Shown: positions 4,101 through 53,700 of the stretch, in pieces
Layout of the letters: the number at the start of each line of letters is the position of its first letter
Numbering within the stretch: the first letter of the stretch is position 1
Source of the DNA: Podarcis liolepis
Taxonomy: Eukaryota
Strand: one strand, 5' to 3'
Assembly (NCBI GenBank): GCA_965112155.1
Contig: OZ218108.1
DNA length: 64,000 nt
Position numbers and translations under genes: made by a program
The notes under the pieces: model-generated
Told to the model about the DNA's origin: nothing
The model's input: the letters and a program-made list of their open reading frames with translations, nothing else
Database searches by the model: none

Positions 4101-7100
4101 TTGTGCATTTGCATGAATCCTATGCGATCAGGGTTCCCTGTAGGCACTTTCAGCTTTATGCACATAGGAACTTCTTTCCAATGCTCTGCTGAATGTTAAG
4201 AGGTTGGGTTAGAGCTGGCGGCAGCCCACTTGGGAGTGGGGCGAATGGGTACACTCCACACTTTAAGTACAGTCAAACCTCGGCTCCTGAGGTTTTGGAA
4301 CGTTTCGGCTCCTGAACTCCAAAAGCCCGGAAGTAAATACTCTGGTTTTCGAACGTTTTTCAGAAGCTGAACATCCGATGGGGCTTCCGCTTGAGTGCAA
4401 GAAGCTCTTGCAACCAATCGGAAGTGGCGCCTCAGTTGTTGAATGTTTTGGAAGTTGAACGGGCATCCGGAACGGATTACGTTTGACAACTGAGGTTTAA
4501 CTATGCACATGAAGGAGGCGTTTCTGAACAGTGTGGGAGTCTGATGTGACTTGAGATGATCCGTTGAGCAAGACTGTGTACTGTTTCATTTATTATATAT
4601 TGGTGAAAATTCTGCATCTACTATTGTAGTACTTGCAATAATTGCGCAGGACAAAACTGTGCTTGTGAAATATGATGTTCCTGAGCAGAATGCTTGGTAT
4701 TATTCAGCTAGTATTATTTCACTAAAATATAGACACTTTTGCATTCCTAGATAACCTCACTTTGCTGAGTCAGTGCAATAGAATAAGAATATTATGAAGT
4801 CGTGGGTTTTTTTAGTCATGATTTCGGTTTATATTCTAGCTGCAGCAGATCAACTTTATGAGCCTCATGCAAGTAGTAGGATCATCATTTGCCAACTTGC
4901 CAAATATGTCACAGCAGATGCAGCAGTCACAGTCCTTTCAGTTGGGAAGAAACCAGGCTTCAAACACTGGCAGCACTGATGTCAATAGGATTCCTCCAAA
5001 ACTTGTAACGTATGACTTACCAGTAAAAGAGATGACAACTCTAGAAAACAGTAGTGATGTCACTAAGAAAAACGCCAATTCCCAGGAGAAAAACAGCTTG
5101 CATTATCAAAGTCATAATGGAGATACTTCAGTAAGTAGAGAGTTGCACTTTTAAATGTAAATTTATAATTCATTTAGGGTCTCATCTATTACATTAAGTC
5201 AATGTCTGTTCACCTTGTGACAGTATATTTTTCTCTCATTTAGAATCCACTGCACATCAGTGATTCTTCAAGCTTACCAGAGTGCCAGACCAATGGAACA
5301 AGCCAGATTCCACCATTTCAAAACTTGCTTCATCAGGTTCCAGCCAGACCATTACCTTTATTATCAGTTTCCCTAAATGCTGAGAAGATCCCCAAGCTTA
5401 TTCCAGTTTCAAAACCCTTAAATAATGCAAGTGGGCTTCCTTTGCTTAAACTTAAACCTGACTTTCAGTTCCAGCCACTCAATATCTGCCCAGTAAAAAC
5501 CCCAAAAGTTTTCAATGGACCATTCCCAAAACAAAGAGAAGCCTGGGGTGTACCTCCTCCTCTGGTGAAGAGTCCTCAAGGTGTACAGATGCCAGAGTAT
5601 AAAGGAACAACAGAACACCTAAATTTGAACAACTATGATCAGGCAGGCCATTGGTCAGAAACTGTAAATAAGGGTCGGTCCAACCATGTTAATTTGGATG
5701 AATATGAGAAAAAAGAAAATATGGCGCCTTCACAACACCTTCATGCACATTTAAAGGCGGAGAAGCCACTGGTTGACAATGGGATTCCCTTGCATAAAAC
5801 TTACCAAAATTTTGCACAGATTCCTTTGCTTTATCTGAAGCCCTACTCGCAATACAAGCATCCATCTGCTATGCCACCTGCGAAACTTTCGGAAAAGAAC
5901 TTTGATTCCATAGACCCCTTTTCGCAGACAGGAATGCCATTGCTTTACACTAATTTACCTCCACTCACCAAGGTAATTGATTCTATATAAGCATGCATAA
6001 AGATATCTTTTGAAAGTTTTTCTGTTTCGGTCAGCCTGTCTAGACACATGATTTGGTTATATCCACTCTGAAATTTGCTTCAGATGTTTTATATGTTTTG
6101 TTGTTTTTAGATGTTATGTTTTTTATTTTCATTTGTATTTTTATTACTGAACTGTTTGCTGCTGGGCATCCTTTGGAGGATATCGACTTAAGAAATAACA
6201 AATATTTTAATTAAATAATTTAACCTTTCCTTTAAAACAGGGATGGGGAATTGGTGGCCCTCCAGATGTCGCTGACTTTGACTCCCATTATCCTTGAGCA
6301 GTGACCATGATGGCTGTGGCTCATTAGAGCTGGAATCCAGCAACATCTGGAGGGGCACAGATCTCCATCTCTGCTTTAAAAGATGTGCATAAGAATTAAG
6401 TACGTCTTAATAAACATTACTCCTTCCTTTGTTGTTTCCATTTACATTAGTGTGATTTGAATGTCTTTCAGTATTATCAGAGTCTGACCTCTTTTGCTTT
6501 TCAAAGTCATCATCCAAATTGGGAAAAATACATTATTCACATAATTATCAAATCCTGCTTTCTTTCCTAAACAGTTTCAAACACCAAAACTCATCCCACT
6601 TCAAACTCTCATTGCATTTGAGCAAAGCCGCCAGGTTGTCCAAGTCCCCCACATTGGGGTTAAAGACCATCCTGAAAAGATTCAGTTACTAAAAGCTAAC
6701 TTTAAACCGCGTGAAGTGAGACAAGATATGAATAATAAAAAAAGGTAAGAACAAATAGTACTGATCATACCAATCTATCTAAATGTGATCATATCAGTTT
6801 GGGTGAACTTAATGTAAGAAAACTAAGTAACTATGGGCTGATAATAAATTACAAAACAAATATAATTTATCCCTTCTAGTTGTACTGGTTCAGAAACAGT
6901 GGTTTCTTCTGCCAAATCAGAGGCAAGATAGCAAGCTGACTTTAGTCTGGATTATAGGATCCACAGAAACTTCATAAACTCTGGTTTGCTGTCTCTTGTT
7001 CCTTTCAGCCCACCAAGCTGAAACCAGTCTTGTTTCTTTTGTTATTTTACATGTTTTGTTTTAAAGAAGACTGCTTTAGCCCCACAAGTTCCCTGCTTCT

Positions 7101-10100: not shown

Positions 10101-13100
10101 CAGGATATAAGAGCAGGATTCACCTAACGTACCTACATATGCAAAAATGTTTCTTTAATCTTTATTAAATATAATTTTAGGTTTTCTTCATTTTTAATTG
10201 TACAGCTGAGACAATGAAATTAGCAAAAACTATTGAAATAGTTTTCTTCCCCTACTAATTTTGATGTGGATAGTAATTATGTATTCCTCCCTCTTAGACC
10301 CAGAGGCAGTTATTTCTTCAGCAGGACTACATTACTTAGCTTCTGTAAGAAAAAGAATTTCAGATCTTCAAGATGCCTCTACAAATACAGATCCTGGTAA
10401 AATAACCTGCAGGAAATTGTTATGTTGTTGTTGGTTTTTTAGCTTTTGCAGCTAAATCCCTTTCCTCTAAGTTAATTTATATTGGATTATCTCCTAGCAG
10501 CACAATCCTATGCATGTCTACTCAGAACTAAGTCACATTGAGTTCAGTGTGACTTCTGGGTGTATTTAGGATTACAGCCTAAGAACTGTGAAAGAAATAG
10601 CAATCAATAATTTCTGCAGTGTTAAGCATTGTGTATGAAATTTGTCCTCTTCAGACCAAGTCCTTCCACCAGAAATAACCCTCCTTCAATAAGTAACAGA
10701 ATGTTTTGTTTTGCCTTTCTGTTGATTGATCTTGATTTTACTTTTTCTTACCAATCAAGTTAATAAATCACATCAAGATGTACAAACGGTCTCAGATGAA
10801 ATAGTTTCTGAACCTGATAAAAATCAAACAATCACCGCTGCTTCGGCATCTGTAACAGGTGTGCTTCCTTTCAGTCTGTTTCTATGAACTGTTTGTTTGT
10901 TTGTTTTTCAAATGTGTTCATTCTGGGTGGGTTCCACTTTTCCTGAAGTCTCCTGGGATGACTAAAAATTTGCTCTGGGTGTTGGAGAATAGTGTGGGAG
11001 GTGCTGCAGGGGACTAACCTTTTTTGAAGATTGGCCACATTGAGTGTTTGGACCATATGTTAGTGCATGCACAAATCTGTGGTGCCATTGTTAGAAGGAG
11101 AGGAACCAGGAACTCAGGAATGCAAGACTAACCTGCTGGATCAGACCAGTGCCCCATCTAGTCCAGCATCCTGTTGTCACAGCAGCCAGGTTTCTTCCTG
11201 TTTTCCAAGAATCTCTGAAACATTCTAATAAGGGCACCATACCAGAGAGAGAAGGGCCCTTTGGAAAAATAAAATGTAGCGCTATAATGTCACCTTGCTT
11301 ATGAGATCTGAGGATGGGGTTCAACCTATTATTAGGTGTGGTGTTCAACAGCGCCACCTGCTGGCGAAAAATAATTTTTGGAAAGTTTCTCAGCATTGCC
11401 CTTTAATAAAATAAATTGAGGAACACCAAAACCTGCTTGGGAAGCCAAACATGCCCTACAGGTTAGCCAACCCTGGTGTAGGGTAGAGGAAGAATTGGCA
11501 AATGAGTAGGCAGATCTGTTGAACTGACAGTCCGTGAAGGGACTCCTCTGGATCCAACCAGGTACCTTTAAATTTATCTTTAATTTCTTTTTATCTTAAA
11601 TTAATCTCCAGGTAATTCACTTGCTCTCCTAAGGCCAAATTATTCAAAATACTCTCAGAAATCCCTGTATTTTAATAAAGAATAGAATGTGCTTTCCTGC
11701 TATTGATTCATCTTGACTTTTATTTATTTTATCAATCAAGTTGTTAAACCTTTTGAAGATATGCAGACCATCTCAGAAGAAATCGTTTTTGAATCTGGTA
11801 AAAATCAACCAATCACTCCTGCTTCTGCGTCTGTAGCAGGTGTGTCATCGGTCTGTCCATGTTGATTTTTTATATGTGTACATTGTATCTTCCTTTAGAA
11901 AAGAAACTTTATTTTACTGATTTAGAATTCATATATATCTATAGTATGAGACTGCTCCCCCCCCCAGTTAATATGAACATAAAGTTCATGTTGATTTTTA
12001 TTGGCAAAGAAATGTTGATGAACCACGTTTTTCACTTACGTACCCTCTTTTATTGTCATTTGTTTTTCAAAGATAGCTAAGAAGTTAATATTTAGTCTTT
12101 GCCTTCTGTGAAAACCTTAGAAAAAAACTTTTGAGCAAATCTTGTATTTGTATTTCATATGTTATGATTAAGAGCGAATGGACTCCCCATCACACATCAT
12201 GTTGTTTTCTGCTGAGAACATGCTTGTGGAGGAGAGGGTTTAATTTTCCCATTTAATTTTCTCAGTCTTTGAAAGCAGTCTTTTCTCCCTTTGAAGGCAG
12301 TTACAGTGGTACCTCGGTTTACGAACTTAATCCATTCCTGAAGTCCATTCTGAAACCGAATCCGTTCTAAAACCGAGGCGCACTTCCACTGTTTGGATTC
12401 CGGTTTTGCGGACTTCGCAAACTGAATAGTTCGTCAACAAGGCTGTTCTTAAACTGAGGTACCACTGTATTTGCCTTGATAGGTAAAGGGTTAACCCACT
12501 CCCCCAGGGCTGCTGCTCCAAACAGAATCACAGGTCCTCTGTGGTTGCTTTTAACCAAAAAAAGGAAGAAATACTGAGCGCTCCAATGATGCATTTGCTG
12601 CATCTAGTGCAGTTATGCCCTTGAAAACCTAATTAAAGTTTTTCTGATGGAAATGAGCACCATTAGTCAAGTAAACTCTGCCAGAATCCCTCTTCTGGGG
12701 GAGACGCATGAGGCTCATTCCCACTTGTAGTACAGGGATAGGGAACCTGTAGCTCTCCATGTCTTGTTGGACTCCAGTTCCCATCAGCCTCAGCCAGCAT
12801 GCCCAGTGGTATGCGGGAGACAATATGGTAACTAACCCCCACTTCTCAGCACAGGAGGAAAATACCTTACTGTCATAGCATATTCAGGTTTTCAATGTTC
12901 TTATCAGTCCTATTGCTACTGTGTCCAAATATATTTTCCAGCATTCCTGGATATTTACTACCCATGGTGACTTAACAATTTCTTTTTCTTCACACAGAGC
13001 TTTTACCTGCAAGTGTTCCCCCGGCGTTGCCACCAGACTTGTACTTGAACCTTACTTTCCCTGCTGAATCAGGAAATGTGTCTTTACAATCCTCATCTGA

Positions 13101-16100
13101 TATTACATCTGATTTGGTAAGTTATGAGAAATATGTGCTGATGATGCAGCAGTACATAGATACAACATGTGTGTTATATTCATGCATCCACTGAAGGGGG
13201 AGTAAGTTCACTACTTTCATTTAAAAATTTAATATTGATCTTTTTGATGTGGTTTAGACTGGACGGAAGTTTATCAATGTGATTGATATAGAAGATGGTG
13301 ATCTTCTGAAAAACTTGCCAGATATTTCTGAGTCGGTTCCAAAACACATTGCCACTCAGCCTATGAAGTCTGAATTCCCAGCTTCTGCAAAATTGCATCA
13401 CATGGCAGCATCTGTTACCAATATAGTTCCACCTGAAGAATTTGAGACAGAAGGTGAACAATTTTCATTTTATTTCAAAATATTCGCTTTTAAAACCGGT
13501 TCCGTTTGATATTGTTAATTGAACAATTCCTCTGAGAATGTGCACCCCTTCAAAACACACTTTAAGTTCTTCCTGCAAAGCTGTAGCTTTCATTGTTGTA
13601 TATTGTGTTTCTTTCTTTTTTTATTTTTTATTATTAGAGTTTCCATAATTTTTATAACAACGAAAACAAAACAAGACAATACAGTAAAACACAACAAACA
13701 TTGTTGTATATTGTGTTTCTGGCAGTTAATGGAAAAGCATTTTCCCCTCTTTTTTGATTCAAAGGCAATCTTCTTCAAACCGAATCACCACAAGTGCCAC
13801 CTAAGCCAGCAGAGACAGAGATTCCTGGTGATCATCTAACATTGAACCTCCTGAATGAAGATTTCAGCACTACTTCCTCCACAGGACCATTAGCCAGAAA
13901 AATGAGCAGGAAGCACATTTCTGCCAAGCTACAGGAAATGGATAGGCAGCTACTGGCCCTACAGAACGTGGCAGAAAGGATGGAAAAAGAATTTAGCAGT
14001 ACTAAACTGGTAGGTTTATGTTTTATATGCTTCCTTCTGCTCAAAACTTTTTTGCGCCTGTGTTAAAGATTGGATAAATATTTATGTTTAAAGTGTGGCT
14101 TTGTGATCTCTCTCCTTTTTTCAGGTTGTGGACACTGTAGAAGATGTAGGTACAGGAGAGGATGACATCTCATTCTTTGCCCCAGGTGTTAAAGTTTCCA
14201 AAGAAGGTGGGTCTTGTTGGTTCTGCTGGCTGATCTATGGAAAGTTGAGAATAATTGTCAGCAGCAGGAGTGGAAGGGATGTGGGCTCAGGGTGAGAATG
14301 GTAGGATGAGATGGATGGAGAGAGGTTTCGCTGGATAAAATATTTTGAAATGAATAAAACAGTGTAGGGAGCATTGGGGAAAGGTAAAATAATCCAAATG
14401 TATCAAAATATTGCAAAAATAAGGAAGTGTCTTATGATACCTTCAAGACCTAATAAATGTATTGGTTCATTTCATGCATCTGAATGAGACTATCGCCAAC
14501 AAAAGCTTATGCCCATAATGAACTTGGTAGTTGGATAATTCCCTAAGTCACACAGAGCAGATCTATGTAAATTTAATAGACTTAAGTCCATTGAGTTCAA
14601 TGGGTAAACTCTGAGCATGATTAACACTGGATTTTTATTTTTAAAAACCCTTGTAAGTGTCACAAGACCCTTTCCTGTTTTTGCTACAAGAGATTCACAC
14701 GGCTGCTCCTCTGAACATATTGTAAAAATGTGTTTTGTTGCTTCTAAAAATCAATGTGCACTCATTTGGTTTCAATTATCCTTTTGTTGAAACAGAGCGC
14801 TATTCAACCCGTGTGATTGTGGAGAATTATACAGAGGAGGAAAGGAGTTTAGGAACGGAATCATTTCAAACTAACTACATTGCTTTGCAAACACCCTCTG
14901 CTTCTCCTTCAGCATCAGCTTCTAATCTTCCCAGAATCAAAAAGTCATCTTCTGGTACCTTTCCCTACCTGTTGATTATTCTATCATCGTGCTGCTTACT
15001 GTTTTTAGTTAGCATTATTTGTATAGTAGCCACATTTCATCATATGTGGAATAGTTCTGCTTCCATAACATTTCAAACTTTGCCATTTCATTTAGTCGTA
15101 TTTGAGGAAAGTGTCATGGATCTTGTGTGAGATAGTAGATAAAGTTGAGCCTGGTTGGGAAATTGTTCTTTCCTATGCTGTTACCTCTGTTCTGCCTTCT
15201 GCTTCCTCTGATCTTTGCATATTAAAAAGAAATGGGCAGAATATTATACTTACTCCTCCATAATCCTCCATATGAGGTGGGTGCCCTGTCTTACTTCTGT
15301 TCCTTACAGAGCTAGACAAAGGCTTGGTGTGAGAGTGTTGCATAAATCATTTTTCTTAATGGCATTGTACCACAGAGGGATGGTTCAGCCCTGGTAAAAC
15401 ATGATTGGAGGGTCACTAAGGTCTGTAGGATTGTTCTGTTCATCATCAAATGACAGGCATTTGAAGTGTGACTTTTTAAAATATGTGGGCTGCCAAAAAA
15501 TAGTGGCAATGCTTTAATGGTTTATTTTAAGCTAGTGTCCTCACAGTCCCTTTTTAATGATAGACATGCTATGGTTTTAACACTAAGCTTGGTAGTTGCC
15601 CTGAATAACGTAATACTGTCTAAATACAAAGGTATTAACTATGGATGGCTGCTTAGCAAATTCAAACACCGCAACTCCCAATATCCCTGACATTAGGCTG
15701 GTGGGAGTTAGCATCCAACATCATCTACAGGGTCACACTTTTCCTGTTTCTGTCCTAATGTATTTGTACAGTGTCCCATGTTGGTTGTATCTTATGGTGC
15801 ATTTCTCTTCTACAATCTATGCTGTCAATAAATTCTGTTTCTTTTTGCAGATATTAATGTTAGATCAGAAGAACTGGATGAGAGGTATGTATGAGAAAAT
15901 ATTGAAATTGGAGACTTGTCTGGAGAACTGGACTTGGGAAAATAGCCTGTGGGAGGGTTAAAAGACACCTGCCCACCCAAAGTCCTGATCCAATTGAAAG
16001 TCTCCATAGATGCCTTTGTTTGTTTGTTTAAGTAAAGGTATGAAATTGCAATTATACATTTAATGTATCATCAAATTTGACTCCCTAGTTTTTTCTAGAA

Positions 16101-19100
16101 GTGGTATTTTTTCCCTATTTGCAGTAATGTAATTGCTTTTTTAAAATAGTTTTTCAGAAGATCCTCTGCAGATCACTGGCTTGAGTGGCGTTTCTGACAT
16201 CATTGCTGATCTTCTACTTGAGGGTGGCATTTCTGCTTCAGAGCTGGGTCTCACAGAAACACAAGCAAAAAAAATATCCAGGTAATTGCTACATGACCTG
16301 TGACATTGTGGTAGAGTGGTTAGAGGTTAGGATACACCTTGGAAAATCAAGGTTCAAATCTCCTCAGCCATAAAGTTCACTGGGTGAATTTGGACCTGTC
16401 ATCATCTATTAGTCTAACCTACCTTATAGGGAAGAACCATGTATGCCACCTTGAGCTCCTTGGCAGGCAGGCAGCAAGTAAATAATTACAGCTGAACCTT
16501 TACTGAGATTTGTGATAGATGTCTGTTTACCTTAACCGGTCAGGTGGCAAACATCCCCACCCCATCCCCGCCATTATCCAGCGATGGGCCATGACTCGGG
16601 GGGGTCGGTCCCAGCCAGCACAACACCAATAATGGTCCCCATGCCATCCGGGGAAGTGGATTTCAGCCTGCCCCAAATTTGGCCAATCATGGGAAGGCTG
16701 TGTTGCTGTTTCTGTCCTAGAGGCAGATCGGACTGAGCTGGAAGGCTTCACTCCCATCCATCTCTTGGATATTTATTCCCTCCTCACACAGCTTCACTGA
16801 GATTCATGATAAAGTTATTAGTGTTACCTTGAGAGAGGTCCAAATCCAGTTCTGGTTGTGGACTAACTTTTGCTTTCCATGCACTTGATATTTTTGGAAA
16901 CTTTGTAGTCCTTTGAGATCAAACAGACATATATATTGCTATGCTACTTCTACATGCTTTTAAATGTTATTTCATCTAATTATTTGAAGTATGTGTTAAT
17001 TATGTCTGAGTTTTGTGCTGTATTCCAGCCTCTCCAGTGTAGTGAGTGGGCATTCACATAAAACAGAAAAGGAGAGAAAAGAGTTACACACTTGGATGAA
17101 AAGAAAGCGAAAGGAAAGACTAGCTGAGTATCTGCAAACGCTGGCTGAACAAAGGGCAAAAGAACACAATCCATTTCATTTTAGAAGAAAAATGGTAAGA
17201 CTACTTACATTGTATTGTGATCATCTGGCTGTAACAATTCAATGTAGAAAATCATTTTTAAAATGAGTTAAGATGTCGTTCTCAAATATGAATGCCCTAA
17301 TCAGCTTCCGCTGCAAATTCTATATTCTTCTGTACAATCTATTACAGCTTTAAAATTAGCTGGATCCATTTGGGGCTGGTTCAGCTACAGAAATGATCAA
17401 AGCTTGTTTATTTGTGGGATAAAATATGATAAGGAGAGGGGGGAGGGGTTGATCACATAGCCTGATCCTTTAATCCAGGGGTGGCCTAACATACCAGTAG
17501 TGGTTAGAGCAAAATGAGTAGAGATACTCTTTTCTCTTTGTCCTTCACACATTCCATTCATTTATTTTCTGGTTGGAGTGAACAGTGCATTGAGTATGGG
17601 TTAGCTTCTCCTACAGCCCAAGAAAGACAGGGAACATGCAACCAAATTTGGGAGGGGGAGTTGTCTATGCAGGGCTTTAGACTAGATGACCACTGGAGTC
17701 TCTTCCAACTCTACAATTCTGTGATTCTGTAAGGGCAGCAGACACCACTCCATCATGCAAAGATGCATTTACCAGACCTCTGACCCATTCAGTCACTCCC
17801 ACCCCAGCAGTTGACTGAAAATTCTCATAGGTTGTGTCAGTTGAAAGTATAGTTGTGGACCATGTTTGTTGGCTTGAAATGCTCGGAGGCAACCAGTTGA
17901 ATAGTTTTTATTTGTTGAGTGGCCACACCTCTCTTTTCCATTTGGGCACAGTTCCAAAATCCTAGCTCTGAAAAAGCACTTATGATGAATGTGTAACCAG
18001 TTATGAAGATTGGAAAGAGAAGATAATTTTAGTAACCGTTTGCCTTTCTTGTATAGCCACTTGGAATCACAACACAGAATATTAAATTACAGCAGAAAAA
18101 GAAATGTGAAAAAGCTAAGTAAGTTATTGCTCAGTGCCATTCCAGCCTTTCCATTTATTTTGTTCTGGTGTATGTGAATGCCAACCCCTTTACCCTGGGC
18201 AGGGGGTGGAGTTTGAATCGGGCTGAGGTGTCTATGTCAGCCCTGCTGGCCTCTGTAGCTTCCCAGCAGCCACCAGCTGATGTCACTCTGTTGGCATGGA
18301 GGTCCCCTTCTGCCCACTCAGTGGATGTGTGGATGGGCAGAAATGCCACTGGCTGCTGGATCCTAAGCATTGGGCCCAACTGTGATGTCACCCTGTCATT
18401 CTGTAAAGCCCTGTTGGTGTGGGGGTGGGAACTTAGGATTTCTCCATATAGACCTTTCAGTCACCTGCCCGGAAATAAGATCAAATGAAGCAATTTTACA
18501 TAAGGACAATTGTCCTATGAAGCTCCAGTCCTGATGATTTGCTGAAAAATAGGCCTTGGGCAGAAAATGCTGACTCAAAAAAGGGGGGAAGATGGTACAT
18601 CTAAAATTGTATACAGTGGTACCTCGCAAGACGAAAAGGGTTTTTGGTTTTTTGAGTTGCTTCGCAAGACAATTTTCCCTATGGGCTTGCTTCGCAAGAT
18701 GGAAACGTCTTGCAAGTTTGTTTCCTTTTTCTTAAAACCGTTAATACAGTTGCGACTTGACTTCGAGGAGCAACTCATAGCACGCGGTGTGGTAGCCTTT
18801 TTTGAGGTTTTTGAAGACTTTGGTGATTTTTGAAGCTTTTCCAAAACTTTTCCAAAACCGTGCTTCGCAAGACGAAAAAAACTGCAAGACGAAAAAACTC
18901 GCGGAACGAATTAATTTCGTCTTGCGAGGCACCACTGTATTGCTGTCTGTCCTGTTTCTCTGGGGAAGTTATACAGCAGGGTTGTACAATTTAAGGCCCA
19001 TAGATGAATTAGGATCCCTCTCTGCTTTCCCCCAAAGGTTAGACAGACTTTGTTTTCTTCATTAAACTAGACGAAATGTCAGTAAAGAAACAAGACTTGT

Positions 19101-23086: not shown

Positions 23087-24860
23087 GTGACCATTTACAA
23101 AATACTAGTTCCTACAGTCCACTGTGCTGTGAATGCAAGGCACAACACCGATTGTACCTTACTCCATTAGAAAGGCAGATGTGCAAGAATTACATCTGAG
23201 ACAGAAATTGGTAGAATGAATACTACACACACAAAACTTTAGCACAAGGGATAGCGGGGGGGGGGGGGGGTCTTGTAAAAGTGCATCCTCAGCTGGGCAA
23301 GCTGTCTTCCCTTGGATCTCATTTCATCTCTATATACCCTACAGTATATACAACACAACCTCCTAGAAGTATAGAGTTGGAAGGGACCATGGACGGTGAT
23401 CTAGTCCAATACCAATCAATGGAGGAATCCTGGCCACAGCTGTCCCTGGGTGGGCTCAGGCCACCAGCCTTCGGGTTAAGAGCCATTGTGCCACCTGTTT
23501 ACATTTAAAATGGGATTATAGGCTGTGAGGCAGGAAGTCCCCAAAGAGGGAATTCTGAATAACTAAGAGTCGGAACTTGATCTTTGAAACAACATTCTTA
23601 AAAGGAAAATCCAAATTAATAGAGGGATGTTAAGCACACATGGTTTCTAACTTGCTGCCCTCTATATATTGCTGGTCAACAACTCCCACAATCCCTATTG
23701 GCCATGCTAGCTGCTGTTGATGAGAGCTGGAGTCTCGACAATATCTGGAGGGCAACATGTTTTCCTATTCATGTTATAAATCATCTAAACTAAGAGTTTA
23801 AGAGTGTCTGTTGGACTCACATTCTTACCTGTGAGGAGTACTCAGGTGGCATCCCAAAGCAAATAACCCTTTACAGAATTGCTGTTTGCCTCCAGTGGTA
23901 CTTGCTATCTTTGCAGAAATTACCTGGAGGCTGAAGGGGTATATTTGAAGAAAAACATAAGCCAACATTTAATTAAAAAGTAAACTTTAACTCAGAAGGG
24001 AGGAATACCCTTTGCTCTGCCCAGTTCCAAGGCACCATTCCTGAAAATAGTATTGCTGTCCTTATCAAATTATCCAAAGATTGATTTCTCTTGTCAAGTG
24101 CTCATCAATGGTCAGAGACTGCAAGATTCAGACTGTATAAAGAGATATCAAACATCCATATTTTCTTATTCAACAGTTTTGTTTGTATACGTAAAAGGAG
24201 TAGGTGGAATTTATTACAATTCTTGATGCCCCTCCAGAAGCAAGACTCAACATATAATCCACTCACCAATAACAATACCTGCTCCCCTTAGGAGCTTGTG
24301 CTGGAAACACAGTAAACAACTTTGAATCAGTTCTGTGTAAACTCAAAATATCCTGGAACAGTTGCTGCAAGGAACAAGCTTAATTAGCAATGGGAATATA
24401 CATGAAATTTCAAACATTTTTGCTGTTAAATTCTAATATATTAATTCTACCCAGGAAGGTATTGGAATAAGTAATAAAGTAATAAGGAAGTAATAAAACC
24501 AATTTGTAAGCACCTAGAGCGAAGCCTTCCCCAATGTCGATCCCTCTATATGTTTTGCACTGCAACTTCCATCTAAAACTCAAAAACTGTAAACCAAAAC
24601 ATCTAGAAGGCACTAGGTTGGGGAAAGCAGACCTAGAGGGTAAATTTGACTTACTAACCGTCAGCATGCTTTTATAAAGAACATGTAAAAGAAACCCATT
24701 AAGTGACTAAGTATAACATTTGCTTTCCCAACTTAAAAGACTAAATTAGCACTAAACTGCAGTACAACAAATAGGAGGAAATTAAAATTATTTCATAGAA
24801 AATTATTAAATAGATTCTGATGAAGAATTAGTCATGTCAGTTTAATTCTTGAATTCTGTA

Positions 24861-25096
24861 CAGTGGTGCCTCGCAAGACGAAAAACTCACTAGATGAAAG
24901 GGTTTTTCAGTTTTGTGTTGCTTCGCTAGACAAATTTCCTTATGGGCTTGCTTCGCAAGACAAAAACGTCTTGTGCTTTTTTTAAAAGCCGCATGAAGAG
25001 GCGCAGTTGCGACGGACCATGCTTTGCAAGACGAAAAACATCGCAAGACGAAAAGACTCGCGGAACGAATTATTTTCGTCTTGCGAGGCACCACTG
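24861..25096. mobile_element. Tigger/pogo-like MITE, same subfamily as 18614-18937
   Basis: TA-CAGTGGTGCCTCGCAAGACGAAAA...TTTTCGTCTTGCGAGGCACCACTG-TA. Confidence 0.9.
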
Positions 25097-25775
25097 TATA
25101 AGAAACCATGCATTTATTATATTTTGCAGAATAAAATAAATGCATCCCAAAATTGTATGTTTGGTGAACATCCACTCTTATACAAGCTTGAAAACAAAAA
25201 TACTTTAAAGTAGTTCTCTGCTAATTATTTGGATGCTATTAATTTCTTCTCCATACGTTAATATGGGGGGGGGGGAGAGACTACTACCCAGAAAGTCAAG
25301 CTGCTTTTAAACCTGGTGATGATACTGAAGCAACCACTCCAGAGTTTTAAGTAGTATTTCTGCTGTGTAAAAGGTGAAAAGAAATTTCAAGTAACTACAA
25401 TACAACCAAGTGTTCTGACCCCAAACTTTTAGATAATAACTTATGATCATATTAGCACAATTAATCAGTTACAAATCCGTATTTACTCCTCTGATATTTG
25501 CACCCTATGACTGTAATTCAGTTAAGTGAAAATACCACTAGTGCAGCTAGGATTTTCTGGTTCACATAAAAATATATCCAACAATAGGATCCTAATGCAC
25601 AGGTGGTGTTCTTGGGTCACATACATTGTTCCTGGTCAAGAGCAGTCTGATCTCCTGATGTCCTAACCAAGTGAAATATATCCATTGCTAGTTTCTCAGG
25701 CGAGAGTGATGGCTGTTCCCACCCCCACTCAAATTTTGAACATTGCTATATAGACAGCATTAGAAAGAAATTGAA

Positions 25776-25915
25776 NNNNNNNNNNNNNNNNNNNNNNNNN
25801 NNNNNNNNNNNNNNNNNNNNNNNNNNNNNNNNNNNNNNNNNNNNNNNNNNNNNNNNNNNNNNNNNNNNNNNNNNNNNNNNNNNNNNNNNNNNNNNNNNNN
25901 NNNNNNNNNNNNNNN
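25776..25915. other. N-run (140 nt)
   Basis: Run of n. Confidence 1.
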
Positions 25916-26167: not shown

Positions 26168-26447
26168 NNNNNNNNNNNNNNNNNNNNNNNNNNNNNNNNN
26201 NNNNNNNNNNNNNNNNNNNNNNNNNNNNNNNNNNNNNNNNNNNNNNNNNNNNNNNNNNNNNNNNNNNNNNNNNNNNNNNNNNNNNNNNNNNNNNNNNNNN
26301 NNNNNNNNNNNNNNNNNNNNNNNNNNNNNNNNNNNNNNNNNNNNNNNNNNNNNNNNNNNNNNNNNNNNNNNNNNNNNNNNNNNNNNNNNNNNNNNNNNNN
26401 NNNNNNNNNNNNNNNNNNNNNNNNNNNNNNNNNNNNNNNNNNNNNNN
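26168..26447. other. N-run (280 nt) in the NIPBL 3' UTR
   Basis: Run of n. Confidence 1.
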
Positions 26448-26709: not shown

Positions 26710-26754
26710 TTAGCTGGAAGTTCCATCCTTGGCGGCATACAACGATCGTAAAGT
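26710..26754 (-). CDS. NIPBL: NIPBL exon 47, visible end (isoform A C-terminus TLRSLYAAKDGTSS*)
   Basis: Reverse complement ACT TTA CGA TCG TTG TAT GCC GCC AAG GAT GGA ACT TCC AGC TAA; remainder is in the N-run. Confidence 0.9.
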   Translation of the reverse strand, partial: TLRSLYAAKDGTSS

Positions 26755-29700
26755 NNNNNNNNNNNNNNNNNNNNNNNNNNNNNNNNNNNNNNNNNNNNNN
26801 NNNNNNNNNNNNNNNNNNNNNNNNNNNNNNNNNNNNNNNNNNNNNNNNNNNNNNNNNNNNNNNNNNNNNNNNNNNNNNNNNNNNNNNNNNNNNNNNNNNN
26901 NNNNNNNNNNNNNNNNNNNNNNNNNNNNNNNNNNNNNNNNNNNNNNNNNNNNNNNNNNNNNNNNNNNNNNNNNNNNNNNNNNNNNNNNNNNNNNNNNNNN
27001 NNNNNNNNNNNNNNNNNNNNNNNNNNNNNNNNNNNNNNNNNNNNNNNNNNNNNNNNNNNNNNNNNNNNNNNNNNNNNNNNNNNNNNNNNNNNNNNNNNNN
27101 NNNNNNNNNNNNNNNNNNNNNNNNNNNNNNNNTTATTGCTTTTATTGCTTTTAATCCCTTGACGCCGGGAGTTGGGATTTCCCGGCACACATTCCATTGC
27201 CGGCAATGAGACGCACCGCGACCGCCAGCGCCAAGGGGTTAACATCCTTGCAAAATCACATATTAAATTGTACCCGTGTCTTTTAACTCTTATTGATATA
27301 TAAAATTATATGTACAAATGAATCATAAAGCTACATAAAAACTTGGCAACAATAAAAAGGATACACACAGTACATTCCAAAGGAAAATTAAACTTTATGC
27401 TAGATAAAATCTCTTCTATGTTTTTTATTGTTTTTGTTAGAACTTTCTACAAAAAGGTGTATAAACGGTTAAGAATTTCTATCTACAAAATGGTTTTTTT
27501 TCCATATTGATTACATTACTCAGTGTACATTTTATTATAGACTGACATTTATAAGCACATAAAATCATTTTACGTAATACGCTGCGAAATACGTTGACTC
27601 CTCCTCCGCCTCACCCCTGAAGTGCCTCCTCCTCTATCCTCCCCATCACTCTCATCATCCTCTGTCTCAGCTGCATTGTTTTTAGGGCTGCCTCCTCCGA
27701 GCAGCGAGGTAATAGCTTTGTTGCGAGCATTTGTGCTAGCTGACACTTCTCCATCTTCCTCTTCTTCATCAGGATCCAAGTGTTCCATGAGAAGTTTGAA
27801 CTAAGAAAGGATATTGGAAAGAAGATTAGATGAGTCAGGAAAACAGAAAAGAAAAAAAGGAAGGAGATGGTGTGCCAAGCCTTATGGGAGTAACCTTAAG
27901 ACAATTTGTGGAGTACACTATCAATTTAGTAGCATGTGACACATCTTTTCTTGGAGAAAGCAAGGATTGTGCTCTTCCTTAATAGGCCTTAAGGGGGCAA
28001 GGTTTTTAGATCTCTTACATGTTAGAGCCTCAATGTTAACCTTTGGCAATTGTGGGGAACTTTTGCTAGCACCACACCAACTCAAACCCAAGAGGGAGTC
28101 TTTTGACTCTTTGCCTGCTCTGTGGTCCATTTCTGGGCCAGGCCCAATGCATGAAATTTGCATTCGGTAGAAAGCTCCCAGTAGAACGAACAGAGACTCC
28201 CCTACAGCCCATAATGCAGATTGAAGGCATGGGGTGCCCCCAACCCAGATCGGGACAACAGCACACTAGGGTATGTTGGTAATGCGTGAAAGCAAACGCT
28301 TGTGCTCACTGGCAAATTCTGCAATGCCACATGTAGCTTGAGCCTACACGTTAATTTTTGCATGGACCATCTCAAGCTCGCTGTGACAGCCCAACCCAAT
28401 GACATTGCACTGTCAATGGAAAAATGATGCAACCTGCAGCTCATCCAATAGCCTTTAATTTGCCTACTTCTGTGCATTAGATACACATTTCTTCAGCAAG
28501 CAAACTGAAGAGGGCAACTTGCAGTGGAAGAAGTCAGCATACTCCATTCCTCACCTCTGAAGAAAAAAACAATTTCAGCCTGTAGCCACTGCTCTTCGTA
28601 TTTCACCTTCTAAATAACAAAAACTTAAAAGTATTTCAGAACATAGTTCAAGCGTTTTTATAAGGAAGTTGATAGGCAGTAAAATTCTGCAGGGGATGCG
28701 GGTGGCACTGTGGGTAAAACCTCAGGGCCTAGGACTTGCCGATCGTATGGTCAGCAGTTTGAATCCCCGCGGCGGAGTGCGCTCCCGTTGCTCGGTCCCA
28801 GCGCCTGCCAACCTAGCAGTTCGAAAGCACCCTCGAGTGCAAGTAGATAAATAGGGACCGCTTACTAGCGGGAAGGTAAACGGCGTTTCCGTGTGCGGCT
28901 CGCCAGAGTAGTTTTGTCACGCTGGCCACGTGACCCGGAAGTGTCTGCGGACAGCGCTGGCTCCCGGCCTCTAGAGTGAGATGAGTGCACAACCCTAGAG
29001 TCTGTCAAGACTGGCCCGTACGGGCAGGGGTACCTTTACCTTTTTAAAATTCTGCAGGCTCTCAATACTTACATCTAAGTACTGTTTGACTATATTCCTC
29101 TTCACTTCATCTGTGAGCTTGGAATGAGCCATATCACTTCGAAGGAAGTCTAGCGTCTGTTTTGGATGGAAATGAATTCCTGCCTTCCTGTTTATTGTTT
29201 TATCGTATACTTTTGCTGATTCAGAGGGAGAGTATTTCTGAATTTTACTGTTATCAAGAAAACAAAATGAATGCTTGAAGTTAATAATATTTCCCCACAT
29301 CCTTTGAAAGTAGAATCTATAAGCAATTCTTCTGAGTCCCTTAGGTAAAAATTCTTAGAAGAAGAGGAGTTTGGATTTGATATCCCGCTTTATCACTACC
29401 CGAAGGACTCTCAAAGCGGCTAACATTTTCCTTTCCCTTCCTCCCCCCGCAACAAACACTCTGTGAGGTGTGCATCTGAACTGTGATAATAGTTTTGCTT
29501 GCCTGAATAAAGGTTGGAGAGATGGGTTGGGTGTGCAGGAGGAAAGATCTGACTTTCGCATGGCTGGAATGTAACCTATAGTAAGAGTCACATCCCTTGC
29601 TCCACCAAGTTTTGCTTCCAGCCCCACCCATCACTGCCATGCACACCCTAGAACTTGCTCGCAAAAGAATGCAGCTCCCAGACTGAAAAGCTTCCCCACT

Positions 29701-38700: not shown

Positions 38701-41700
38701 CCAGCCAGCTCCACCAGCAAGGTGTAGATGCCTTAGGAGGAGAATGTTTCATCCAACAGTGCCCCCTTGGAGCTGTCTATTATCCTGTTCCTGTCTACTT
38801 TCTGGTTTGACATGAAACATCTGCTTCCCCTGCAACACTCAAAGCTTCCATGGGAACATTATTTAGATGGGTTTTGATTTCACAAGTACAGAACTATTGC
38901 AATTCAGTTTAAGACCATAAAATGTGCGCTGTGTGCTTCATTTTGTAATGGATATAGTTCTGAAGGCTGGGTCATAAGAAGCTTTCGCTCAATGTGAACA
39001 GGTCCTCCTGTACCTGCTTTCTAGCTACACAATCACATGATCAAGTGTATTTCATTTATTGAATTTATCTGCCACTCTTCCCCTCTAAGGGGACCAAGAC
39101 AACAAACTCACCCACAACAAATTTTAAAAAGCATTCTAAAACAGTTACCATTAAAAATACCTAAAAAGTTACAGGTAAAAATATTTCATCCAGTGATCTC
39201 AGGATGGCCCTTACAGTATTCTTTAGCCACCAAATGCCTGGTATACAGGAATGTTCTCAAATTCCTCCTGAAAGCTAACAGTGTTGGAGGCACACACCTC
39301 ACTACATGAGGTTTATATATGAACACACTTCTGCAATAATTCATACAGTCATGTGGAAGGGTAACTTGAATTCCACCTGGAGCTCTGCTACCCACAAAAA
39401 ATTCTACATAGCTTATGAATGGAATGTAAATAACTGTTTTACCTGCCAGAGATTCTTCATACTTCAGAATGTGTTCAACCAAATTATCCACAAGCTGAGT
39501 ACAGGCTTTCTTTACAGGCTTATATGAAGCATCTTCTTCAGATTTTAGCAACTACAAAGAGATACAATATGGACAATGTTGATACTCAAGGCTAGATTCT
39601 GAGAATATACAAGCCATCTTCATATGAAAGCATGTAAAAATAGGAAAGAACTATATTTCTGCCACACACGGGAAGCAACTGTCAATAGGCCAATAATTTG
39701 CAAGCAGTGCATTGGAGCAAAAGAAAAGTGTGTGTAGTGGGGTTGGAGGAGGGTGACTTTCCTCACACCCTCCTGGCAACCCCCTCTCTGAAATGGCTTC
39801 CCCAAAAGGTCTTGCTCCCATTTCTGGAAGCAACCTCAAGAATCCACCTTCACCTTCAAACTCCCATTCCACAGCCTACCCCATTCAGTATAAACCTTAA
39901 ACTGAGGGAGTTCCATTTTTAGAAAAAATTAAGTTATCTGAACAGTTACTTACATTTTGAAGAAGCTGTTCAAACCAATCATACCCTGTATCTCTACAAG
40001 CTGCAACCTAAGAGAAAATGAAAATTCATTTGCATGTAACTTTTCTACAGTAACATATGTGAATATTAAAACATCAATAAGAAAAGGTAAAGGACTCCTG
40101 GACAGCTAAGTCCAGTCAAAGGTGACTATGGGGTGCAGCTCTCATCTCGCTTCAGGCCAAGGGAGTCAGTGTTTGTCCACAGACAGCTTTCCAGGTCATG
40201 TGGCCAGCATGACTAAACTGCTTCTGGCACAACAGAACACCGTGATGGAAGCCAGAATACACGGAAACTCCATTTACCTTCCTGCTGCAGTGGTACCTAT
40301 TTATCTACTTGCACTAGTGTGCTTTAGAACTGCTGGGCTGGCAGAAGCTGGGAGAGAGCAACGGGAGCTCACCCTGTCATACGGATTCGAACTGCCAACT
40401 GCGAACTGCCCAAGAGGCTTAGTGGTTTAGACCACAGCGCCACCCACAATAGTAATATACCAAATGTAAGTTTTTTCTAACCTTATGACTATTGCTTTAT
40501 GTTACTGTCCCTTCACTCTGTCTAACCTACATTATTTTTGAAGCAGGGACCTCTTTCCTATTAGGCTCTGTAAAGTGACATGCTCATTCATAGTACTAAT
40601 AGGTTTCTGAATAGCATCTCAAATATTTGAAGCACCATCTAAGTTCATTAATCATCACCTTATGACCAAAGCAGACCAAATGTTTTTGGAAACAATGTCA
40701 AATAAACATGAAATCTGCTTTATATAAATGAAAACTATAAAAATATTATACAGTGGTACCTCTAGTTACAAACTGAATTTGTTTCGGAGGTCCATTCTTA
40801 ACCTGAAACTGTTCTTAACTAGAGGCGTGCTTCCGCTAATGGGGCCTCTTGCTGCTGCTGCACCACCAGCACACAATTTCCATTCTTATCCTGGGACAAA
40901 GTTCTCAACTCGAGGTAACTCTTTCAGGTTAGCGGAGTTTGTAACTTGAAGCATTTGTAAGTTGAGACGTTTGTAACTCGAGGTACCACTGTACTGCAGG
41001 AGTATTGTTAAACTCTCTTGAAAATATCTCAATCCATTTAACGTTATGTTTACTTAATCAACTTCAATCCTACATACATGCTATACTAGAATAGTTGATT
41101 AGTTATAGCGAACCTCACTAAAGACCCAGAGTATTTTACATGTATCAAGGGAGATGTGTGCAAACTGCAACATTTGCTTGAGCGCTACAATATGAGAACT
41201 CTCAGTCTTTAAAGAATAAACTAACACTAGGGACAGAGGATAATCACCAATCATGTCAAGGACAATAACAAAATTAGAACACGTCAGACACAACTCAATT
41301 TATCACAATTGATACATTAGTCAATGGGAACAATAGCACTCTCATACCACATCTGTAATGTTCAATATTTTCCTGGTCATTGCTTCTTTGTCATTATGGG
41401 GAGTTGGAGTAAACCACAGCTTCTGGAATGTCTCATTTACTAGTTTCTGGAAATAAAATGGATAGATATTGATTAGGTAAAAGTAGCTTTCCAGAGTCTC
41501 TAAACTTCCAACAAGAGTCTAGAAAAAGCACAACCCACTAGACACACATCACTAGCATTTCAACTTGAATGGAAGGGAAATCAGCACCAATATAGCCTCA
41601 GTCAAGCAACCCCCACCCTGCTGAAGCAGCAACCACCCACTGCTCACAGGAGATCCAAACACTGCTTTTGAGAAGTCCTTTAATCCCTGCTCAGTCCCGC

Positions 41701-50700: not shown

Positions 50701-53700
50701 ATCTCCTTCCTGCAATGTTATCCCACCCTTCCTTTATAGCATTCAAAGAGGCATGCTTTGCATGGCTTGATCCTATGCTATGCCCCACCCCTCTTTTATC
50801 ATCTCATCAAATCTGTTATGTAGGATGGGCTGTAATAGTAGCTGGAGCAGGTCACCCAGGGAGTTTCATGGTGGAGTGGGGATTGGAATAGATGCTTGCC
50901 TAGTCTTAGTGCACTAAATCTCACTAGCATTTCGTTAACCAATATTCAGTTAAGCCATATTAAAAAAAATAATGAAAAAGTTCAAGCAAAAAGTAGGGGA
51001 TGGTAGGAGTTTTCCCTCATCTGACATTTGATGTGTTTTCTACTCTCCCAACAGCCACAAGCCTTGTATGCAAAATCTGAAATTGCACCTTAGATTCAAA
51101 TCCCAACCCTGCAGTTATGCAGACATAGTTTGGCTTAGCATGCCCCTTGAAGCAGGCAGTTAACAATAAAATGTCTTAAAAAACCCAGACTTCTTCAAAA
51201 GATGGGAGGAGAGGGAGAGAGAAATTAGCACTGTATATTACCTGAAGTTCCTCAGACTTCTTTTGCTGGTTGGTAACCTTGCAAGTGAAGTGAAAATTTC
51301 TTCTAATATCAACTGCCTATGCTTTTCATATCTTGAGAAGACCTGAAAAAAGTTAATTATGGTTATTATATGTATGTCATTTCCTGTTTATTTTGCTGTC
51401 CAAAATACAAACTATTTTACAAACACACATACACACTTATTAAAACATAAAGTTATTTTCCTACTACCAATCAATATCTATAGCCAAGAGGTATGAATCC
51501 AGAAAAGTGGTATTAATGTAAATGTATTAAATGGTTTAAAATTATTTTGGAGAAGGTACTACTAACATTAGTTTAAGAGAGTTGAAAATACCAACTCAAA
51601 TTGTTTTCTAAGTAAACTTTCAAACCTAGTGAGGCTCACCAAGTTGTTCACACACTGAGCCATTAGGCTGGACAAATTACCGTACTTTTTCATGACTAAG
51701 ATGAGGTTTTTTACTCTAAAATAATGTTTAAAATCTGGCGTCGCCTTATACATGCATAGTGCAGAGGGGAGACGGGCTATTGGTTGCAGCCACGAGCAGG
51801 AGCTTGTCAGCGGCGATATGGTGGGTGATTGGTGGCTGCGGCAAGGGCTGCTGTAGATTGGCTGTCGCTGCGGCAATTGGGCGTGCGAATGCCGGCTTCT
51901 GTTGTGGCTTTGGCGACACTTGCCATTTGTAGTGTTTGTCAGTCAGCTTAGTGATTTTTGGCATCCCCCCAAAAAAAGCTCAACAACCCTGGGCAATTCC
52001 CCATTTTCTTACATTGGAGTCCCCCAAAACAGGGGTCGTCTTATACATGGGGGTGTGTTAAACATGGGAAAATATGGTAGCTGCTTTAAAGCAGCTATCC
52101 TAATCTACATTGCTTCAAAAGAAATTAAAAATCAGCCCAATCTGTATTTGCTATAGCAATGAGATTTCTCTCTCGGAGATATCTTCTTGTAGGTTTTCAG
52201 CTACTCTCAGTATGCCCCAAATCAAGTTAGTGTCCCATCACAGACACATCAGACATGGTCTCAGTAACATAATTCCTTAACCCTTTCCTACTATCAAAGT
52301 ACAGTAATAGAGCTGTTTGATCGGCAGTGCTCCTTGCTTCTAACAATTAAGGTAAATAATGGCGTGAAAGATCAGTGGTGGTGGTATTGTTATACTTTTC
52401 TCACAAACCAGCTGCAATCTGGCTTATGAGGCAAAGCTTAGTGGGAAGTAGTTCAGTGGGGAAAAGAACCTGTTGCCAGGCAAAGTTAGAAGTGAGGGCA
52501 GGACCAGGACCAGATTAAGTAATTCATGAAAGCCACCCCCCACAAAAGTTCCTTAAAAAACCAACAACAACACCAGAAGCCATTCATTTCTTTACAATTA
52601 AATATTGGTTAAAAGGTGTGCTTACTGCAGTGACAAGTTTGATGGCGCATAACTGAAGTTCACTGACATTTTCTACAAAAAAAGGTGTTATCCCCATTGA
52701 AGAAACCTATTAACAGAAAAGGAAATATATACATAACTTCTCATAATACTTGATAAATGAAAATAAAATCTTTTCAACAGAAAAAGACCTCTGATCATCA
52801 TCTTTTGAATTGTGTTCTCCAATTCCCATACTAGTCGCAGTAGCATACAAGAGGGATGAAAAGCACCTCAGATTTAAGACAGAAAAACACATTTGTTTTC
52901 CTTGGGTATTTTGTAGTTATTGTTCTTCAAAGATGCATATATTTTCCATATCATATATATTTATAACTGACTGCCCAAGTTGCCTTATAAAATAATTTTA
53001 AAAATCTAGTAGCTTAAATTTAAGAAGTTTCATTATTACTGCTTGTAAAAGAAAATAAACATCCACTGGAGAAGAACTTTAGACCTGTGTGTGTGTACAG
53101 AAGGGGAAGAGAAATCTGGATAAAATGGATCAAACTTACCTGAAGAATAGTGGTGTCAGTAAGAAGCTGTATCTCCAACAGTTCAGCCAAACTGCTAACA
53201 ATATCACAAATTTTGTTGTATAACATCACGATTACTCTTTGCTTATGGGTAGAACACTTGGCACGCTTTGCTTTTGAGCTTAATACACCACCTAGTAAAT
53301 TTTAAAACAAGATACATTTTTTAGAAATTCAGCACAACGCAACCATATTAGATATAAAGTTTCTCCTCAACAAGTTCATATATTTCTCTTATCTCCCGAG
53401 ATGAAATACAGTGGTACCTCGGGTTACAAACACCTCAGGTTACAAACTCCACTAACCCAGAAGTAGTACCTTGGGTTAAGAAATTTGCCCTAGGATGAGA
53501 ACAGAATCGCGCGTTGGCAGCGGGAGGCCCCACTAGCTAAAGTGGTACCTCAGGTTAAGAACGGTTTCAGGTTAAGAATGGACCTCCGGAACGAATTAAG
53601 TTTGTAACCAGAGGTACCACTGTATAGTCAACCAAGTTGACTATAATAAATCAAGTTGATTGTATGTATTGTATGTATACAATACAATCCCTTCTGAAGG

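Follow-up and report, generated by a model that had tools for sequence, protein, structure and literature searches.

The question raised by this locus is whether a CpG-rich inverted repeat of 92 nt, which lies in intron 46 of NIPBL shortly before the exon-47 acceptor, decides between isoforms A and B of the gene. The earlier note on this DNA had read the repeat as a candidate isoform switch at the RNA level, with cleavage after an AATAAA near the branch point and a structure that may set the A:B ratio; spelled out, the stem would hide or expose this AATAAA, and cleavage there would compete with splicing. The analyses below cover the whole stretch of 64 kb, here called the window.

Gene context and the end of isoform B

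Comparison of the peptide encoded by exon 46 indicated that it matches the human NIPBL chains 6wge_E and 6wg3_E, both from solved structures (E 1.8e-31), which bears out the gene and the intron that had been named. The following parts of the gene were located.

27615..27797, minus strand: coding sequence of NIPBL exon 46, part of it translated (translation and peptide match)
27570..27614, minus strand: intron-46 donor, with GT at 27614, and the read-through coding tail of isoform B up to its stop (frame and peptide match)
26710..26754, minus strand: visible end of the exon-47 frame and the isoform-A stop, which set the position of the acceptor (exon length from PMC4100155, in part)

The exon-46 frame stays open across the donor (27614) and reaches a stop after a short tail, which is the layout of isoform B described in PMC4100155. 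If exon 47 has its human length, the acceptor would lie at 27074-27075 and intron 46 would measure 539-540 nt; the earlier note, under the same assumption, had placed it near 27075. The acceptor, the branch point and the pyrimidine tract are covered by an N run (26755-27132), and the visible intron is 482 nt long. This run and two others, 25776-25915 and 26168-26447, overlie the coding part of exon 47 and the region of the isoform-A 3' UTR. Exon 47 has a weak acceptor, with a score of 0.41 in the same excerpt of PMC4100155.

The 5' part of intron 46 (27243-27614) has a GC content of 29% and a CpG o/e of 0.96 and is thus not CpG-depleted. A human isoform-B primer, printed in PMC5372497, fits the window near 27483-27466, where 11/12 of its first bases match by eye. 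From these two observations the whole short intron appears, as far as its sequence tells, to be under constraint, and the hairpin is not alone in this.

Analysis of the visible intron revealed three AATAAA hexamers, at intron positions 79, 186 and 469, and one variant signal.

27531..27536, minus strand: proximal AATAAA, intron position 79, in a weaker context
27424..27429, minus strand: AATAAA, intron position 186, likely the poly(A) signal of isoform B, with predicted cleavage near 27404 (from the 211 nt of PMC4100155 and the spacing of PMC11870849, both in part)
27141..27146, minus strand: distal AATAAA, separated from the stem by 4 nt (intron position 469)
27155..27150, minus strand: ATTAAA overlapping the end of the stem

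Human isoform B carries 211 bp of intron 46 (PMC4100155, in part), a figure that probably represents the reference transcript rather than a mapped cleavage site, and it is from this figure that we infer the end of isoform B in the window. The human extension maps to 27404, which is 20 nt behind the hexamer at 27429-27424 and about 160 nt before the hairpin; the spacing between hexamer and cleavage given in an excerpt of PMC11870849 is 10-27 nt. The mapping was aided by the primer match mentioned above, which is offset by a few bases. Two UGUA motifs lie at most 60 nt upstream of hexamer 27429, and its downstream tract is the most U/GU-rich of the two that could be scored. For hexamer 27146, the 60 nt upstream contain no UGUA; this hexamer belongs to a short tandem repeat rich in A, and the sequence that follows it falls in the N run. 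The predicted exposure of hexamer 27429 was 0.97, versus 0.44 for hexamer 27146 in a fold ended by the N run. Since the 211-nt extension ends behind 27429, where UGUA and the U/GU tract are also found, the AATAAA behind the stem is not the best candidate for the isoform-B signal, and from its sequence it would at best be a second poly(A) site.

The same data bear on the switch. Its appeal lies in the AATAAA and the overlapping ATTAAA right behind the stem, and cleavage 10-27 nt after this hexamer would leave 40-57 nt to the inferred acceptor. In the folded state the distance to the nearest UGUA (27316) would also drop from some 170 nt to some 80 nt, an arrangement in line with the statement in an excerpt of PMC11870849 that RNA structure can bridge poly(A) elements, and the number of AATAAA in 482 visible nt exceeds that of shuffled sequences (P 0.017). 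However, the published end of isoform B maps to the upstream signal, the distal hexamer lacks a nearby UGUA and is predicted to be less exposed, and the outer stem has no alternative fold, its inner pairs all being predicted with high probability (see below). Isoform A exceeded isoform B in every human tissue tested, and the patterns of the two are called 'extraordinarily similar' in an excerpt of PMC5372497. This nearly identical, constant tissue pattern argues against a tissue switch, and the regulated A/B switch fits poorly; we regard it as very unlikely.

Anatomy and origin of the 92-nt element

The element consists of the following parts.

27151..27242, minus strand: TTAA-bounded imperfect inverted repeat of 92 nt (84 nt between both TTAA), intron-46 positions 373-464, with 9 CpG
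27225..27242, minus strand: outer stem, 5' arm (TTAA and 14 nt); the inner 13 pairs are predicted with probability of at least 0.95, the four TTAA pairs with 0.3-0.67
27151..27168, minus strand: outer stem, 3' arm, in which the base adjoining TTAA is A and not the G expected of piggyBac
27195..27208, no strand assigned: perfect 14-bp palindrome, predicted as the apical hairpin with pair probabilities near 0.7; the window has 10 perfect 14-mers, this one included
27174..27183, minus strand: near-palindrome of 10 nt, the mini-hairpin of the earlier note, rarely paired (about 0.2)

Alignment of the arms showed that 15/18 positions match and that the sense strand has two G-U pairs and one C-A mismatch, exactly the 18-bp stem that had been described; the AATAAA 4 nt past it was likewise found, at 27146-27141. 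In the 14-nt arms inside TTAA, 11/14 positions match. The element had further been called a CpG-rich island in AT-rich DNA. Its nine CpG and its GC content of 60%, against 29% upstream, agree with this, while the richness is not unique, given the CpG o/e of the upstream intron. At the CpG depletion of the window 2.1 CpG would be expected (P for nine or more about 4e-4), and 0.9% of the 92-nt windows in the 64 kb reach nine. These other CpG-rich windows have the appearance of repeats.

The note had also likened the ends to those of a piggyBac-type MITE, and part of this likeness held. TTAA is present on both sides as the target-site duplication, the left end starts with a run of C, and the 14-nt arms fall in the length of about 12-19 bp given for terminal inverted repeats in an excerpt of PMC5381638. 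On the right, A stands beside TTAA in place of the terminal G, perhaps through a later mutation. PMC5381638 also gives a six-base motif for the ends, graded there as only 'relatively well conserved'; it fails in register at both ends and fits if shifted by one base at both. A search of the 64 kb by blastn and by a scan for the arms found no second copy. By its ends the element resembles a piggyBac-type MITE, of which it is a candidate member.

These shortcomings count in favour of a conserved pre-mRNA stem of non-transposon origin, with TTAA ends that arose by chance in an A+T-rich intron; TTAA is self-complementary and frequent, with 451 sites in the window, and the lack of a second copy speaks for it as well. 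Such an origin has to account, however, for TTAA in exact register at both ends, for the piggyBac-like arm length and the C-run start, and for the scarcity of comparable pairs: 11 pairs of TTAA sites 40-400 nt apart reach 13/18 matches in the window, and just two reach 15/18. We consider it decidedly unlikely.

The second TTAA-bounded inverted repeat at 15/18 lies at 6232-6379 (148 nt), and its arms are unrelated to those of the NIPBL element. At least six further elements in the window, at 12288-12483, 18611-18940, 24859-25098, 40749-40993, 53406-53625 and 54338-54459, have inverted ends of 25-39 nt and a common TA-flanked start; they probably form a single group of Tc1/mariner-type MITEs. 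Nowhere in the window is folding stronger than in a tandem array at 3295-3725, with 4.4 copies of a CpG-rich unit of 99 bp that are 96% alike and are each built from two palindromes, and this array lies inside an open frame of 331 codons on the plus strand (2863-3855). Other long frames follow on the same strand between 2863 and 15127, for example 4840-5151, 5244-5987, 13758-14063 and 14726-15127, and are possibly exons of a gene that converges on NIPBL, a place taken in human by CPLANE1. A Pfam search with eight long frames named none above the cut-off.

The three mismatches in the outer arms are all transitions, whereas 16/32 mismatches are of other kinds in 10 inverted repeats taken from this gene as controls; the numbers are small in both cases. 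The nine CpG have been kept despite diverged arms, which, with no second copy in the window, would suit an old constrained element better than a fresh insertion. A related stretch may exist in human NIPBL intron 46 and is given no weight here.

Described piggyBac-type MITEs such as human MER75 and MER85 (PMC4625184 and PMC5381638, in part) share with the element the TTAA flanks, arms of 12-19 bp, the left C-run and the non-coding character. The NIPBL element, compared with them by description, differs in its length of only 84 nt, its right-terminal A, a motif one base off and its single occurrence in the window. UCON29 was a first guess for its identity and was dropped: it stands with piggyBac-like elements in PMC4625184 and as Kolobok in Repbase according to PMC5753468 (both in part), and it was judged by name only. 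The ancient exapted repeats (UCON, Eulor, MER130) resemble the element, by description, as short non-autonomous elements in the non-coding part of a developmental gene with possible reuse by the host; the cases described act as enhancers.

Folding of the element on the two strands

The sense strand folds at -41.3 kcal/mol (z -2.71), a stability reached by 10/1000 dinucleotide shuffles. For the antisense strand the energy is -37.9 kcal/mol (z -3.27), a value matched by 2/1000 shuffles, and the outer stem of this strand includes a G-U pair. The difference of sense minus antisense is -3.4, against a shuffle mean of -4.4, and 63% of 1000 shuffles are equally asymmetric. In the helices described earlier G-U and A-C stand at 5:1 (one-sided p=0.11), and at 2:1 in the outer stem alone; the sense fold has six G-U pairs, a number attained by 17% of 500 composition-preserving shuffles. 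The argument that G-U pairs reveal structure of the transcribed strand is therefore not supported by the antisense z, the shuffled asymmetry or the pair ratio. The strand data are those expected from a decaying DNA palindrome and point neither to an RNA role nor away from one. A transcription-linked G+T excess was tried as the cause of the G-U pairs and explains little, the gene-body excess on the sense strand being small (G-C skew 0.032, T-A skew 0.031) and the control repeats having nine G-U and seven A-C.

Within the outer stem, the 13 inner pairs keep their high predicted probability (at least 0.95) both alone and within the 482-nt context, and the inner arm is predicted to pair at 0.53-0.86. 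The mini-hairpin proposed at 27183-27174 was rejected as a stable helix in view of its low pair probability. Among tiled windows of 92 nt, 35/684 reached z of -2.65 or lower, and six of these were also at least as stable as the element (five at a tandem repeat, one at an inverted repeat); the tiling used the minus strand and 20 shuffles per window and was out of register with the element. The stability of its fold is not exceptional within this window. Rfam gave no matches at the gathering score in the window, and the four matches around the element were at chance level by E-value (best E 0.9). As an excerpt of PMC8250186 puts it, the fold of a single sequence is no evidence of function, and functional RNA structure needs covariation in a well-powered alignment.

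The symmetry of the two strands is relevant for two readings in which the RNA plays no part. In the first the element is a functionless transposon relic, the hairpin is a by-product of the terminal inverted repeats, and the CpG survive through youth or low methylation. MITE-like inverted repeats abound in the window, any DNA palindrome folds alike on both strands, and CpG o/e is high in the adjoining intron too; the CpG-rich windows elsewhere, repeat-like in appearance, point the same way. Set against this are the absence of a sister copy in 64 kb, while other MITE-like families have several, the arms that already differ at 3/14 positions, and the conservation of the surrounding intron with human, and we hold a neutral relic to be possible but unlikely.

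In the second the element acts as enhancer-like DNA, with palindromic factor sites that are kept and a hairpin that is incidental. The strand-symmetric fold suits it, and the retained CpG suit an unmethylated or bound site. Inside the element are the perfect 14-bp palindrome and short matches to NF-kB-type and TEAD-type motifs; the near-palindrome at 27174..27183 is the one that fits an NF-kB-type consensus. Such short motifs are common, however: across the window the NF-kB-type consensus occurs nine times, and perfect 14-mers number 10. The ancient repeats MER130 and UCON29 are described as enhancers in an excerpt of PMC7786948. A role as DNA is in our estimate likewise an unlikely, though possible, explanation.

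A putative pre-mRNA stem before the exon-47 acceptor

We tentatively favour, as the best explanation and with clear reserve, an old relic of a TTAA-inserted, piggyBac-like MITE that has probably been selected as a fixed pre-mRNA stem and would aid the weak exon-47 acceptor, with no regulated switch. Insertion at a TTAA site long ago would have supplied the arms, and the element would then have been kept. Isoform B would be cut near 27404, about 160 nt upstream of the stem, so that the stem would be present only in RNA that extends past this site, as pre-mRNA or intron-retaining RNA. The stem would close about 75 nt before the acceptor, make the intron about 90 nt shorter and leave the branch-point region free, and the shortened intron would give a steady bias to isoform A through splicing to exon 47; isoform A predominates in every human tissue studied (PMC5372497). 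This explanation is favoured by TTAA together with arms of piggyBac length, mismatches that are only transitions, the high pair probabilities, the kept CpG, the conserved intron, the weak acceptor and the excess of A over B. It is weakened by the lack of a strand preference, the missing terminal G, the shifted motif and the lack of a second copy in 64 kb, and hairpins of MITEs that are equally or more stable are common in the window, which also counts against it.

Sequencing runs offered a hint at the transcript level. The index of runs gave 24 rows, 18 of them with at least half of the words; four rows that are maybe the window's own source were left out. Nine runs from three studies, guessed to be RNA, contained 0.98 of 63 sampled words over 27133-27800, their contigs giving no strand, end or level. 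RNA across the whole visible intron may thus exist, as pre-mRNA or intron retention would give. Over the 668-nt stretch, organisms B, E and F had 0.75-0.98 of the words and are close relatives only; the small shares of organisms C and D (0.25) and of four chicken-gut rows (0.19) are no evidence.

Comparable systems are known. The MAT2A hairpins with METTL16 are named in bioRxiv 10.64898/2026.10.24.761493. Conserved hairpins of this kind, which control the processing of a terminal intron or an intronic poly(A) site, share with the NIPBL stem a structured RNA near the choice between last splice and intronic 3' end, and IgM-type composite terminal exons (PMC11870849) share that choice. Unlike these, the NIPBL stem comes after the likely cleavage site, belongs to no Rfam family and is known from its sequence and predicted fold. 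In the literature on NIPBL intron 46, isoforms, RNA structure or polyadenylation and on ancient piggyBac-like MITEs no paper on the element itself was found, and the supplements of genome-wide screens or Dfam may list it. The accessible parts of PMC13420535, of bioRxiv 10.64898/2026.10.24.761493 (NIPBL absent from the main text) and of PMC11463631 (no NIPBL passage) do not describe it, and their supplements may. What sets isoform A versus B is not described in the NIPBL literature searched.

[quoted passage not shown] Autoregulation of its RNA is disputed: heterozygotes retain up to 65% according to some studies and 50% according to PMC9710879. NIPBL is also counted among the RNA-binding proteins of ENCODE (bioRxiv 10.1101/2024.08.26.609813). 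From these two points one could construe the ancient piggyBac-like MITE as a feedback sensor of cohesin-loader dosage, in which NIPBL or a reader of double-strand RNA would bind the stem and decide between splicing to exon 47 and an end or retention in intron 46. This is highly improbable in our judgement; if true, the sensor would give a physical handle on NIPBL autoregulation and a target for antisense oligonucleotides in Cornelia de Lange syndrome.

Transposon-derived hairpins and reused ancient repeats are already well known, and the element would matter only if it were shown to be conserved, to covary and to affect how intron 46 is processed. As a defined element of 92 nt, 75 nt before a weak last acceptor, it would be easily tested, and it would be a place to seek non-coding variants in patients.
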